From a virus (lineage: Duplodnaviria > Caudoviricetes), in the IMG/VR virus record IMGVR_UViG_3300028805_000048: a stretch of DNA of 64,000 nt, one strand, 5' to 3'. This document shows, one piece after another, positions 16,404 through 51,463 of the stretch (positions within the stretch are counted from its first letter, which is position 1; each line of letters begins with the position of its first letter). The position numbers were made by a program, and so were the translations under genes. The notes below the pieces were generated by a model. That model was not told where the DNA came from, did no database searches, and worked only from the letters and a program-made list of their open reading frames with translations.

Positions 16404-16745
16404 ATGAATGAATATATTAAGTCTTTTAAAGAAGCTGTAGAAAAATTAGAAGAAGATTATGATTTGTCTTATGGAAGATATTTAGGATCTTTAGTGAGAA
16501 ACAATGATGATTATCAATTTTATAAATATCCAAATGATTATATTGAAATAGTTCACGCTGATTATAATAAAGATAAACATAATATATATCCAAAAAATTT
16601 AAATACTAAAGGAAAAGCAATCGAAATGATATTTAGATTACTTGGAAATGGATATAGCTATTCAAATGATGCAGGTGCATTAGGTTACGATGACCAAGGT
16701 AGAGCTGAATGGTATGAACATAATCATCCAATAGAAAATAAGTAA
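16404..16745 (+). CDS. Putative internal head protein, leader type A
   Basis: MNEYIKSFKEAVEKLEE leader; AGTTCTA at 16356. Confidence 0.65.
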   Translation: MNEYIKSFKEAVEKLEEDYDLSYGRYLGSLVRNNDDYQFYKYPNDYIEIVHADYNKDKHNIYPKNLNTKGKAIEMIFRLLGNGYSYSNDAGALGYDDQGRAEWYEHNHPIENK

Positions 16746-16771
16746 AAAAATTACGATATTAAGATTTTTCA

Positions 16772-16812
16772 TTAAAAAAGCTCCTTTCTTTAATTAGATT
16801 GGAGCTTTTGTT
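16772..16812. terminator. Bidirectional terminator
   Basis: aaaagctcc...ggagctttt between convergent genes. Confidence 0.7.
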
Positions 16813-16848
16813 TTAACACTTTTAAAAGTTTATTTATATTATATATTG

Positions 16849-17637
16849 TTAATTGATTCTTAATATTATTTCGTGCCACTGATCAAATCTAAAATTACAT
16901 TTAGGTCGATATTTTTCATATTGTTTAATGAAAGATAACATATATTCGTCATTAACTTTTGCTGGATTATATCCAATTTCAATATCATAATTCCATTCAT
17001 CTCTCACTGCTGTCACTACTACTAAATCTTGTTTAATTAATTTTTCTAATTTTTGTACTATGTTATCTCTGACACTATACGCTTTGTATTTAGAATTATG
17101 TAATCCTCTTCCCATATATTCATCTGTTTTTTCGGTATCTAATATTTCTATTTTAGCATTAGGAAGATATGTTTTAATAGTATTAGTTATTTGTTCAAAA
17201 TCATCGTTTTCACAAAATTTTTTATTTATCATAAATCCAACGATATAATTTTTTATATTATATATAACATGAGGATTATCATCTGAAGTCATTTGTTCAT
17301 ACGCTTCATTATCTTCATCTTTTTTACCTGTCAAATATAAAGGCTTTCTTCCTTTTCCTACAACATTTACTTCATGATAAGCACCTTGTAATCTTGTAAC
17401 TTTATAATTTTCAGATAATTTATCTCCATCTACTACTAATTGTACAGGATAGTTAGCAAAAAATTCCATTTTATTTGAACTAAAAGCTATACCTCTATCT
17501 TGATATGCTATCATTTTATTTGATTTTAGTATTTTTTCTAACGCATATACAGTTGTACAATGATAAAGTAAACCAACTTGTTTGGCTTCATCTAATTTTT
17601 TTACATCTTTTCTAAATTTTTCAATATATTTATTCAT
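16849..17637 (-). CDS. Putative internal head protein, leader A plus ADP-ribosyltransferase-like domain
   Basis: KLDE leader; LYHCT, GIAFSS and distal Glu; paralog of 18316. Confidence 0.55.
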   Translation of the reverse strand: MNKYIEKFRKDVKKLDEAKQVGLLYHCTTVYALEKILKSNKMIAYQDRGIAFSSNKMEFFANYPVQLVVDGDKLSENYKVTRLQGAYHEVNVVGKGRKPLYLTGKKDEDNEAYEQMTSDDNPHVIYNIKNYIVGFMINKKFCENDDFEQITNTIKTYLPNAKIEILDTEKTDEYMGRGLHNSKYKAYSVRDNIVQKLEKLIKQDLVVVTAVRDEWNYDIEIGYNPAKVNDEYMLSFIKQYEKYRPKCNFRFDQWHEIILRIN

Positions 17638-17643
17638 CGTTTT

Positions 17644-18291
17644 TTAACCTTTATATCCATTGGCAAACATAGCTTTTCTTTGAGCATCTGCTTCTTTCTT
17701 AGTCTTGAAGGTACCGTGTGTACCTTCTTTTCCTTTATTAGTCCAAGAATTACCTTGTTTAACTGTATCTTCTTCTAAATCCCAATCTTGATGATTTAAT
17801 AATTTATTTATTTTATCTTTACTAAATATTTTTAAGCATTGTTTATTATTTAACATAATATTTTTTGTTAAATTGATATCTTTTATATAATAATTATTCT
17901 TATATTGTGTATATCCGGCTTCTAAATTTTTATCATTTAAATATATAAAATCTGCTACATATATATTGTTAGGAATATTTATGATATTTTTTAGAGCGTC
18001 TAACATATCTGTATGTATTCCAAAATGTGCATCCCATACATATATATCGTTATTAATAGCTAAACCACGTAATTCTTTATCGATTGATTTGTTTAACAAA
18101 ATATCTATTTCAGTTTTAGTAGGATTTTTATATACTTGTATATATTTCATATAATTCATACTTGAATCATGATTAATATTATCTAAATCTATTTTAACTA
18201 CTTTAGCTTCTTTTATTAGCTGATAATCTTTTTCAGCATCTTCATCGAGTTTTGCTATAGATTCTCTAAGTCTCTGTATGTATTTATTCAT
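17644..18291 (-). CDS. Putative internal head protein, leader A plus RG..YVWDA..G.H domain
   Basis: Paralog of 19192; extra basic module after an internal LEE. Confidence 0.6.
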   Translation of the reverse strand: MNKYIQRLRESIAKLDEDAEKDYQLIKEAKVVKIDLDNINHDSSMNYMKYIQVYKNPTKTEIDILLNKSIDKELRGLAINNDIYVWDAHFGIHTDMLDALKNIINIPNNIYVADFIYLNDKNLEAGYTQYKNNYYIKDINLTKNIMLNNKQCLKIFSKDKINKLLNHQDWDLEEDTVKQGNSWTNKGKEGTHGTFKTKKEADAQRKAMFANGYKG

Positions 18292-18315
18292 TGTTAAATT
18301 CCTTAATTTTTTTTG

Positions 18316-49605: not shown

Positions 49606-49619
49606 GGAAGGAAACAATT

Positions 49620-50198
49620 ATGACTGAAGAAGAACAATGGTATTATGATCAATTAGATGAAGAAAACAGAAAAAATGTTGATCTTATAGCTGAAGAATTA
49701 AAGGCTTATGTCAAAGATGATTTTAGTTTATTAACCGATTTAGATCAAGATATAATTTCTAAATTTTTACATGATAATGATATAATGATTTATAATTCGT
49801 ATAAAGATCAAATTAAAAACGTTTTTAGTATATCTAAATATGTAATGTTATATAAACAAGAAATGGATTTGATTAAGTTGCTAAATGAATATCTTGATAT
49901 ACATGATTCTAAAAAAGAATTAGACTACATAATATCAAGAAATTTTACAAACGAAATAGTTTTTAATGCTAAAAATAAAGGTGAATTGAAAGTAAAATAT
50001 TTATATGATTATGAAAATGAAAAATTTAGTTTTTATTTAATAGGTAATCGTAAAAATTTTCTAATAGATTTCGTAGATATAAAAATGCTTTTGACAGGTA
50101 AAATAGTGAAAGATATACCATTTGTTAGAAATAGTAAAAATGAAGATAATATATCTTTAACATATAATGGCATGAAAATAACAATTCAAAAACAATGA
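49620..50198 (+). CDS. Hypothetical protein
   Basis: 192 aa ORF with RBS. Confidence 0.7.
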   Translation: MTEEEQWYYDQLDEENRKNVDLIAEELKAYVKDDFSLLTDLDQDIISKFLHDNDIMIYNSYKDQIKNVFSISKYVMLYKQEMDLIKLLNEYLDIHDSKKELDYIISRNFTNEIVFNAKNKGELKVKYLYDYENEKFSFYLIGNRKNFLIDFVDIKMLLTGKIVKDIPFVRNSKNEDNISLTYNGMKITIQKQ

Positions 50199-50309
50199 TT
50201 TAAAATTAATATAAACTATTTAGAAAATTATTTTTTATATCTAATAAAATTGGTTTTTCTTTTATATTATTTTAATATATGTTGTAATCGATGTTGAAAT
50301 TATTTTATT

Positions 50310-50720
50310 ATGGAGATTAAATTAATGGCATATGTTAAGATTTGTATGAGAACATGGAGTAGACTTAGTAATCGAGAAACTAAGTTTAAGCGTGGTATTG
50401 CACCTCGTGAAAGTTTCATTGAAATGAACGATAAGAAAGAGGTGACATTAAAACCAGGAAATGTAAAATGGAAAACTTTTGATACAAGTATATCAAGAAT
50501 CGGTGATAAATCTTATATCTCTGATAAAAAGAAAATGTATGAAGGTTTATGTTTTAAAAATAGAAAAGATGCAGAATTATTCATGTCTAAACATAAAAAT
50601 GAATTGGATAAATTTGCTGCAAGCAATCCTTTATTTGATCATTGGTCAATAATGAACGTTATAAAACGTTTTGAACCAGATAAAAAGGTTTTATATGGTA
50701 AAGACATAATAGAAGATTGA
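50310..50720 (+). CDS. Hypothetical protein
   Basis: ORF; probable start at MAYVK. Confidence 0.7.
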   Translation: MEIKLMAYVKICMRTWSRLSNRETKFKRGIAPRESFIEMNDKKEVTLKPGNVKWKTFDTSISRIGDKSYISDKKKMYEGLCFKNRKDAELFMSKHKNELDKFAASNPLFDHWSIMNVIKRFEPDKKVLYGKDIIED

Positions 50721-50749
50721 TTAAATAATTAAAATGAAGGAGAATATAA

Positions 50750-51142
50750 ATGAGTGTTATGGGATATAAGCAAATAATAAAGCATGAAAACGATTTACCT
50801 AAAATAAAAACAAAAATAGCAGATTTATCAACGTTATGTAGATATAAAAGCGCCAAAACTAATAAAGTCCATGAACCAGATAGATATTATTTCGATATTA
50901 CATTAAATGGAAGTGGATTGTTGTCGGCTTATAAACATGTGTGTTATTTTGATGATAAAGAAAAGGCAGAAAGTATATATAAAGAATTACGTTTAAAATT
51001 ATATGATCAAGAAACTAAACCGTTTTTAAATAAGATAGCTTCAAATTATCGTTTAACAACAAATGATAAAGAAAGAATATATAAGATATTTAATAAATTC
51101 GAAAAATTAAAAAAGATAGAAGAAGTAACAGTATATAAATAG
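50750..51142 (+). CDS. Hypothetical protein
   Basis: 130 aa ORF with RBS. Confidence 0.7.
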   Translation: MSVMGYKQIIKHENDLPKIKTKIADLSTLCRYKSAKTNKVHEPDRYYFDITLNGSGLLSAYKHVCYFDDKEKAESIYKELRLKLYDQETKPFLNKIASNYRLTTNDKERIYKIFNKFEKLKKIEEVTVYK

Positions 51143-51166
51143 TTTTATGGGGATGAAAGAGTAGCT

Positions 51167-51463
51167 TCATTGCTGCTCTTTCTTTTTCTTATTTCTTTCT
51201 TCTCTCATTTCTATCGCTTCTTTAAATTTCTTTTTATTTTCTGGATTTTTATACCATTTACTACGTGTTTCTGCACCTTTTTTAGCAGCTTCAACATTAC
51301 CTATTGTTCCAGCATACATGTCATGACGTATAAAAGCATCATCTTCACCTTTATTATGTTGGAATTTAGATTTTCTTAAACTACCTAAACTTTTAAAATG
51401 ATTACCGTTTTCTTCAGCTTCAAGAACTTCAAGAAGTTCATCTAATACTTGTCTCAATCTCAT
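51167..51463 (-). CDS. Basic late protein with acidic leader (possible internal head protein)
   Basis: MRLRQVLDELLEVLEAEE followed by a Lys-rich body. Confidence 0.6.
   Translation of the reverse strand: MRLRQVLDELLEVLEAEENGNHFKSLGSLRKSKFQHNKGEDDAFIRHDMYAGTIGNVEAAKKGAETRSKWYKNPENKKKFKEAIEMREERNKKKKEQQ

Follow-up and report, generated by a model that had tools for sequence, protein, structure and literature searches.

Seven predicted late proteins of an uncultured T4-like jumbo phage begin with one of two kinds of short, exchangeable N-terminal leaders that end in the motif L-x-E, and an eighth carries such a leader internally. They are encoded in a stretch of 64,000 nucleotides (IMG/VR virus record IMGVR_UViG_3300028805_000048; G+C content 27%), which was analysed at its full length and is referred to here as the window. 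We consider it probable, at roughly two chances in three, that these leaders, termed A and B, are capsid-targeting propeptides of the T4 type. This reading, put forward in a preliminary description of the window, is supported by a gp23-family capsid protein, an LxE at the boundary of the capsid propeptide, a gp21-family protease in relatives, [LI]xE junctions in two cargo families that have been rearranged around them, and a late expression motif, so that the predictions which could be tested at sequence level all came out as expected.

Leader A comprises 17 amino acids and opens three open reading frames (ORFs), namely A1 (start at 16404, plus strand), A2 (17637, minus strand) and A3 (18291, minus strand). 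Leader B, which is 14-21 amino acids long, opens B1 (19191), B2 (19746), B3 (31991) and B4 (34117), all on the minus strand. In addition, a copy of leader A occupies residues 127-143 of the minus-strand ORF 23365-24111 and is recognised by a leader-A profile with an E value of 1.8e-8. All of these leaders are located where the preliminary description had placed them, and each of the seven plus one ends in L-x-E. When the first 22 residues of the 113 ORFs of the window were compared all against all, ungapped and scored with BLOSUM62, the three A-A pairs reached 44-50 and the six B-B pairs 37-74, whereas the maximum among 6,328 control pairs of internal segments was 25; the sole other high-scoring pair, 20250/21599, consists of full-length paralogues. 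The similarity ends at LxE, as had been claimed, since the score per residue amounts to 1.9-3.7 within the leaders and drops to between -0.1 and -1.5 over the 20 residues past the motif. Both leaders feature Tyr, Trp or Phe at position 4 as well as hydrophobic residues at positions 7-8, and they are predicted helices in the structural models of B1 and B4.

For comparison, 13 IMG/VR loci with capsid proteins 69-89% identical to that of the window were used, among them the three near-complete relatives G001 (227 kb), G002 (237 kb) and G003 (231 kb), which were analysed whole. Searches with leader profiles, which the preliminary description had proposed for the genome and its relatives, recovered the internal copy of leader A; in G002 and G003 they detected none of type A, which seems to be limited to closer relatives. 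Two weaker leaders proposed earlier did not hold up. The product of ORF 32396..32896 (plus strand), which lies behind an AGTTCTA at 32359 and has no relatives in the loci compared, scores 18 against B1 and thus falls within the control range. That of ORF 51167..51463 (minus strand) matches neither leader profile (E > 2) and is conserved over its whole length in G001-G003 without any exchange of leaders. As both are unsupported, the number of proteins concerned is seven plus one and not about ten.

In T4, capsid targeting sequences are reportedly present on IPI, IPII and IPIII, which are internal proteins, and on Alt, a finding that is said to go back to Mullaney and Black in 1996. According to the T4 record, a leader of 10 amino acids with IAE at its end is common to ipII and ipIII, while that of ipI has 19 amino acids and closes with ITE; position 4 is occupied by Tyr or Phe. 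For packaging, the first 10 residues are enough, and the tag alone packages foreign proteins; residues 4 and 7 serve targeting, residues 8 and 10 direct the cut, and Asp in place of the cut-site Glu blocks processing (PMC9026906). The ADP-ribosyltransferase Alt is packaged and trimmed by gp21 as well (PMC9026906), and the internal proteins of T-even phages have only the leader in common (PMC3012670).

It is conceivable that the shared 5' ends are kept as nucleic acid, i.e. as recombination linkers or translation-initiation signals, and that the encoded peptide is functionless. A common layout of promoter, leader and gene would favour the exchange of cassettes, and modular exchange is on record for T-even internal-protein loci, as far as the citation of Repoila et al. 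1994 in PMC3012670 conveys it. The leaders are nevertheless constrained as peptides and not as DNA, because conserved residues are encoded by differing codons (2-6 per pair of leaders); moreover, the nucleotide identity is just 59-81%, and substitutions at hydrophobic positions are conservative, whereas polar positions vary freely. Leaders are also recognisable by their amino acids in distant relatives including G001, which is syntenic with the window and shares 65-82% nucleotide identity in conserved genes, but whose DNA does not align with the leader-gene region of the window. Finally, leader copies occur inside ORFs as well. We regard a role as mere nucleic acid as highly improbable.

All eight leader genes fall in five units led by AGTTCTA, in line with the preliminary description; the heptamer is mostly followed by (T/A)A(T/A)A and is located 32-53 nucleotides upstream of the first ATG. 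In the A1 unit the core is found at 16356..16362 (plus strand), 48 nucleotides upstream of the ATG. The four genes B2-B1-A3-A2, which are spaced by 0-24 nucleotides, follow a core at 19780..19786 (minus strand), 40 nucleotides upstream of the B2 start. The remaining three cores, all on the minus strand, are those of ORF 23365-24111 (24158..24164, 53 nucleotides upstream of the ATG), of B3 together with the conserved late gene 30714-31520 (32036..32042, 51 nucleotides before the ATG) and of B4 (34151..34157, 40 nucleotides upstream of the ATG). Of 16 AGTTCTA sites in the window, 14 are intergenic, compared with 13% intergenic DNA (binomial P 5e-11), and the same bias is seen in G001-G003 (P 1e-16 to 1e-35). 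In G001, AGTTCTA is found ahead of the genes for the capsid protein, the protease and the tail sheath (the last a PHROG 23 match, E 3e-65), for which reason it is read as a putative late promoter core; the late timing of the leader genes is deduced from this motif.

Neither the AGTTCTA at 57303 nor that at 62459 has the T/A-rich context, and both were rejected as promoters of the same type. The former (region 57295-57320) is contained in the loop of a perfect 9-bp hairpin, while the latter (region 62455-62470) precedes NrdG/NrdD-like genes, G001 having an AGTTCTA in the equivalent place before an NrdG-like gene. Another motif, GTAAAGC(C/T), is present in 33 copies in the window, far above the expectation from base composition, and seven of these are followed within 60 nucleotides by a late AGTTCTA of the same strand. 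It adjoins, for instance, the AGTTCTA sites 13131, 24158, 32359, 34151, 44194 and 52096. The pairing is rare in G001-G003, and GTAAAGC(C/T) might constitute a second promoter element or have a regulatory role.

The major capsid protein of the window (14367..15914, minus strand; 515 amino acids) belongs to the gp23 family (Pfam PF07068, E 1.3e-23), and its true start is M5 according to an exact match on record. It is at most 37% identical to any protein of 50,697 GenBank phage records, and a megablast search of window positions 14000-20000 against GenBank phages gave no match. A predicted propeptide of 84 amino acids (15663-15914, minus strand) ends in LNE. The capsid proteins of 12 relatives have a conserved L-x-E, behind which comes a link that is rich in indels and differs in length, and then the conserved body. 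Moreover, the BLASTP alignment with T4 gp23 begins at residue 85, directly after LNE-84, and there corresponds to T4 residue 75; T4 gp23 is cut after LTE-65, which places the start of the alignment ten residues from the mature T4 N-terminus. The propeptide would, on this evidence, be removed at LNE-84.

With respect to the protease, G001, G002 and G003 each encode, behind an AGTTCTA, a protein of 818-1001 amino acids, the first ~200 of which match Peptidase_S77. This match reaches 26.5 bits in G003 (28.1 with neighbouring stretches, against a curated cut-off of 27) and 17-19 bits in G001, and its E value is below 0.01 in 11 of 15 diverse homologues. A 15-sequence profile of the protease aligns with T4 gp21 (NC_000866) in hhalign over 116 columns with an E value of 4.6e-5 and 33% identity. 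More than 340 homologues were found, many of them on contigs of 210-254 kb and one in a metagenome-assembled genome that bears the label Succinivibrionaceae. The HP and GxSxRGxG motifs of T4 gp21, which hold its catalytic His and Ser, align with conserved counterparts in the profile. Furthermore, the N-terminus of the G001 protease, QLLIE-9, is the same as in T4 gp21, and LLIE is retained in G002 and G003; LIE-9 is a probable self-cleavage site of gp21 (PMC9026906).

In sequence searches of solved structures with the protease domain and its profile, an immunoglobulin-like domain was the sole match (E 0.002) and was taken as spurious. The protease domain is fused to an acidic, poorly conserved tail of 600-800 amino acids with conserved islands and Cys-rich motifs, as in the genes G001 179010-181994, L035:8863-11868 (minus strand) and G003 58873-61329, the homologues ranging from 737 to 1268 amino acids in length. 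This tail may be the scaffold of these phages.

The junction between leader and cargo was traced through two cargo families. Searches of 5.8 billion proteins yielded 26 relatives of B1 and 56 relatives of B4, 39 of the latter with a strict mature-start motif. In the family of B1, whose members have an ADP-ribosyltransferase fold, [LI]xE stands directly before the mature start AKQ in 25 of 25 sequences (relatives plus A2), and what precedes it is leader A (17 amino acids), a short B (14), a long B (21), A with a spacer, A with a longer extension or a B variant of 22-24 amino acids. In the family of B4, which has a nuclease fold, the motif precedes the mature start in 37 of 39 sequences (29 with L and 8 with I, the remaining two having K and F there), either behind leaders of 12-30 amino acids or behind an extra N-domain of 130-165 amino acids. 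The background frequency of [LI]xE is 1.4% per residue, and the residue preceding the cut is always Glu and never Asp in the [LI]xE junctions of both families. Such diverse leader architectures imply many separate rearrangements, each of which kept the joint. The two leader classes of the preliminary description persist as families A and B but are modular, consisting of a head helix and an optional spacer with a second LxE, and hybrids between them occur.

Leaders and junctions are also encountered within polyproteins. In the ORF L010_7570-8652, leader B, the so-called Y domain of A3, an LKE and the AKQ start of an ADP-ribosyltransferase-fold domain are joined in a single frame. The C-terminal part of the product of ORF 23365-24111 is a separate leader-A gene in L010, and G001_143454-144554 features an internal leader B at residues 184-203. 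Internal copies of this kind suit cut sites far better than any other sort of N-terminal signal.

These observations bear on a further explanation, according to which the leaders are uncut amphipathic helices for oligomerisation, for binding of membranes or partners, or for enzyme control, LxE being merely the end of the helix. The predicted helicity of the leaders suits such a role, LxE is to be expected by chance at the background frequency given above, and cleavage of the leaders is deduced from their sequence. Nevertheless, a helix end does not account for a junction that persists in 25 of 25 and 37 of 39 sequences despite the varied length and type of the leader and always ends in Glu, nor for its presence within polyproteins, where an N-terminal helix end is impossible. 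The same motif, moreover, marks the boundary of the capsid propeptide and the protease N-terminus shared with T4 gp21. We therefore attach a slight chance to uncut helices.

Turning to the cargoes, those borne by one leader type are unrelated once the leaders are removed, in agreement with the earlier claim that the cargo differs. On the other hand, A2 and B1 are related from the first residue past LDE (cargo residue 1; E 2.5e-11), A3 and B2 are weakly related (E 0.024), and B4 is related to the product of the leaderless ORF 29721-30599 (E 1.9e-10). Hence, homologous cargoes bear different leader types, while one leader type bears unrelated cargoes. Apart from A3, which matches PHROG 3684 (function unknown), no family in Pfam, PHROGs or NCBIfam was found for the leader proteins.

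B1 (18316..19191, minus strand; leader B 19129-19191) and its paralogue A2 (16849..17637, minus strand; leader A 17587-17637) carry a cargo with an ADP-ribosyltransferase fold. In the model of B1 (mean predicted local distance difference test, pLDDT, 80.7), the leader forms a detached helix (residues 3-14) that is connected to the domain by a low-confidence link. The fold matches Tpt1 with a Z score of 9.6 (root-mean-square deviation, rmsd, 2.8; 111 residues aligned), DarT with 8.0, 7.3, 6.8 and 6.6, and KptA with 7.2, followed by toxin-type transferases. Among the VIA matches, the ADP-ribosyltransferase fold accounts for 9 of the first 11 and 13 of the first 16; Foldseek returned KptA with a probability of 0.99 (E 8e-3), and the proteins matched in BFVD belong to large phages and are uncharacterised. 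Two residues, H30 and E96, do not vary among 18 aligned sequences of the family, which include A2. As judged from the model, the cargoes of A2 and B1 are assigned to the split beta-sheet ADP-ribosyltransferase fold of the DarT/Tpt1-KptA branch, an assignment that concerns the fold only. T4 Alt belongs to a different branch of the ADP-ribosyltransferases.

B4 (33515..34117, minus strand; leader B 34055-34117) has a cargo with a PD-(D/E)xK nuclease fold similar to that of Vsr. Its model has a pLDDT of 86.1, which falls below 50 exactly at the junction residues 21-25, and the leader is again a separate helix (residues 3-14). The best fold match is Vsr (Z 7.5, rmsd 4.0, 114 residues aligned), followed by I-Bth0305I, VRR-NUC, TnsA, Bax1 and Can2. 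Foldseek likewise gave Vsr (probability 0.94, E 0.025). The scores for this cargo are middling, but nearly all matches have this nuclease fold. Invariant columns of the family include D74, H92 and D107. The model thus points to a Vsr-like, restriction-endonuclease-like core fold, again with respect to the fold only. As to the neighbourhood of this family, ORF 29721-30599 (minus strand) shares the Vsr-like nuclease domain with B4 by sequence, and its N-terminal half matches DUF7487. ORF 51475-52017 (minus strand) may be similar, as judged by eye. All three genes lie behind AGTTCTA, and only B4 bears a leader.

The other cargoes are more enigmatic. A1 (16404..16745, plus strand) consists of leader A (16404-16454) and a cargo of 96 amino acids with an isoelectric point (pI) of 5.4. 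B2 (19192..19746, minus strand) carries leader B (19684-19746) ahead of the cargo that is weakly related to that of A3, and its homologue in G002 has a B leader of 14 amino acids. The fused protein of ORF 23365..24111 (minus strand) comprises an N-terminal part of 126 amino acids, the internal leader A (nucleotides 23683-23733) and an acidic C-terminal part of 105 amino acids; neither its halves nor A1 and B2 could be assigned to a fold or family. In B3 (31539..31991, minus strand), leader B (31929-31991) is followed by a very acidic cargo of 129 amino acids with a pI of 4.1, for which the ESM Atlas returned just scores of 0.82, i.e. at chance level. The corresponding slot in G001 (142634-144554), G002 (116138-117389) and G003 (46065-47288) encodes a B-leader protein with a mature part of pI 4.1-4.2. 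These proteins cannot be aligned between the genomes, and the slot always precedes the conserved late gene (265-268 amino acids; 30714-31520 in the window). This pattern suggests a hypervariable slot, as would be expected of a fast-evolving host-directed protein and as is the case for the ipI locus of T-even phages. That B3 acts as a DNA mimic is only a guess.

A3 (17644..18291, minus strand) is composed of leader A (18241-18291), the Y domain and, behind LEE-174, an ultra-conserved basic module (17647..17769, minus strand; pI 9.9) that makes up its last 41 residues. A scan of 1.84 billion representatives with A3 returned 711 clusters, most of which match only this module, with 65-90% identity and in proteins of 64-2700 amino acids. 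From these, 143 copies of the module (proteins P0203-P0352) were examined, 142 of which were scored upstream. The residue before the module (P1) is E in 138 of 142 copies, and P3 is occupied by L (104 copies) or I (20 copies); S and E are frequent ahead of the LxE, yielding ESLxE. Moreover, 109 of the 143 copies are internal; in 66 of these 109, a further [LIVF]xE terminates 4-5 residues past the module. An antirestriction domain, ArdA, is present in one carrier, which lies in an apparent row of head genes on a 91-kb contig. The module has no Pfam family and no match among GenBank phages, and its sequence strings occur in no searchable paper. We take it as strong ancillary evidence that proteins of these phages are processed at LxE, and as a result in its own right; it might be a peptide excised from within polyproteins packaged in the head, or else a unit that docks them. 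As for the Y domain of A3 (residues ~27-115), it occurs in 4-9 tandem copies in metagenomic proteins of 620-2722 amino acids, e.g. P0208, P0210, P0222 and P0224.

The main rival of capsid delivery is that the leaders are indeed removed by the protease while the proteins are trimmed assembly parts: they would belong to the core or scaffold of the prohead or be minor structural components, would be degraded or stay in the virion, and would not be host effectors. The protease of T4 cuts gp22, gp67 and gp68, which are proteins of the core, into fragments that exit from the head (PMC9026906). A1, B2, B3 and both halves of the fused protein show no recognisable fold or family, and the LxE-flanked basic module resembles an excised internal peptide. 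Two cargoes, on the contrary, have the ADP-ribosyltransferase fold of a conflict-system enzyme and one has a nuclease fold. In addition, the cargo set differs among close relatives while the head genes are conserved, and one slot is hypervariable and acidic, all of which suits host-directed proteins better. A role as trimmed assembly parts retains a small but appreciable chance.

If the leaders are capsid-targeting propeptides, the pathway could be as follows. The leader would be a short helix of amphipathic character whose position 4 is aromatic, and a flexible linker closing with (L/I)-x-E would connect it to the cargo. Late in infection, it would dock the cargo on the scaffolding core of the prohead, whereupon the gp21-type prohead protease would cut after Glu. 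The same protease would process the 84-residue propeptide of the capsid protein, its own N-terminus and the internal junctions of the polyproteins. The mature cargo would then be retained in the head, be ejected into the next host together with the DNA and act there. As address and cut site would constitute a self-contained module, any gene placed behind it would become cargo, and this could explain why leaders are swapped, why hybrids and fusions occur and why the cargo set changes fast.

Several points weigh against capsid delivery. The system is known from genes alone, with no cultured relative among the 50,697 GenBank phage records. The gp21-like protease, to the presence of which the preliminary description had tied its proposal, is found in the genomes of G001-G003, while the window phage's own gene would lie outside the 64-kb window. 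The S77 matches are weak (17-28 bits), the hhalign probability amounts to 68%, and neither the protease domain nor the 15-sequence profile retrieved a relative of solved structure by sequence. In addition, homologues within a family are mutually related, so that the junction counts do not represent independent events, and LxE is short, so that leaders rich in L and E would contain some by chance. The structural matches obtained for the cargoes are middling (Z 7.5-9.6) and speak for fold, not activity, and several cargoes are acidic, as opposed to the basic internal proteins of T4.

Taken together with the T4 system, the likenesses concern a short leader on unrelated late proteins (10-19 amino acids in T4 and 14-21 here) with an aromatic residue at position 4, its end in (L/I)-x-E, which is the gp21 cut site, a capsid protein of the gp23 family and, in G001-G003, a protease of the gp21 family, an ADP-ribosyltransferase (Alt in T4) or its fold (here) among the cargoes and a cargo set that varies among relatives. 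In contrast to T4, the leaders described here, which are known from their genes and cannot be aligned with those of T4, form two families with hybrids that carry a second-LxE spacer, and they are also found inside polyproteins. Further differences are the long acidic C-terminal region of the protease, the DarT/Tpt1-type fold and the acidity of several cargoes. New features are the two leader families with their hybrids, the internal polyprotein leaders and the protease fused to a long tail, as well as the DarT/Tpt1-type and Vsr-type cargo folds and the widespread basic module bracketed by LxE.

The internal-protein loci of T-even phages are described as polymorphic (Repoila et al. 1994, cited in PMC3012670). 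To the extent that this citation conveys them, they resemble the slot before 30714-31520 and the cluster 16404-19746 in that the leader is kept and the body replaced; they differ from the uncultured clade of ~230-kb phages studied here, which has more such genes (seven plus one in the window) and two leader types on homologous cargoes. In the giant phages phiKZ, 201phi2-1 and SPN3US, many head proteins are trimmed after Glu by a protease related to gp21, the SPN3US paralogues gp53 and gp54 have an identical N-terminus of 15 residues and diverged bodies, and the propeptides are assumed to direct proteins into the prohead (PMC5694885, PMC7411985). Their proteins are cut after (S/A/G)-x-E and their propeptides mostly exceed 100 residues, whereas the present leaders are short and end in (L/I)-x-E as in T4. 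The polyvalent proteins (Iyer et al. 2017, PMC5512222) contain conflict domains such as ADP-ribosyltransferase, nuclease and ArdA domains in tandem and are thought to be packaged with the DNA and released proteolytically. Strung conflict domains, the proposed delivery with DNA and the release by proteolysis are common to both systems. However, release of polyvalent proteins is proposed to occur mainly by built-in metallopeptidase domains (PMC5512222), while here the LxE joints are such as the serine protease of the prohead would cut, and most cargoes consist of one domain behind a leader.

If the propeptide reading is true, short removable capsid tags are no speciality of T-even phages but a general, modular means of loading in a large uncultured clade of ~230-kb phages. 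The leader together with LxE would then constitute a sequence rule that predicts which phage proteins are delivered into the host, likely as first-strike anti-defence or take-over factors. The candidates it singles out here are proteins with DarT/Tpt1-like ADP-ribosyltransferase folds, one with a Vsr-like nuclease fold, and acidic proteins that are hypervariable. Moreover, the leaders would be new short tags for the packaging of foreign proteins in phage heads, a use to which the T4 tag has already been put. A bolder and distinctly tentative idea, which we hold to be rather doubtful, is that a protease-defined grammar of cassettes exists in many uncultured phages of gut and rumen, in which exchangeable address helices (A, B and hybrids), LxE joints and the 41-residue module with its ESLxE brackets let any domain be loaded, alone or as part of a polyprotein, and be cut free. 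Under this grammar, for which Pfam holds no matching family, the leader classes or the basic module might set the copy number or the position in the head.

Apart from the leader genes, many ORFs of ~100-120 amino acids on the plus strand between 3750 and 36428 of the window share a C-terminal motif, (L/F)(K/R)MKG.

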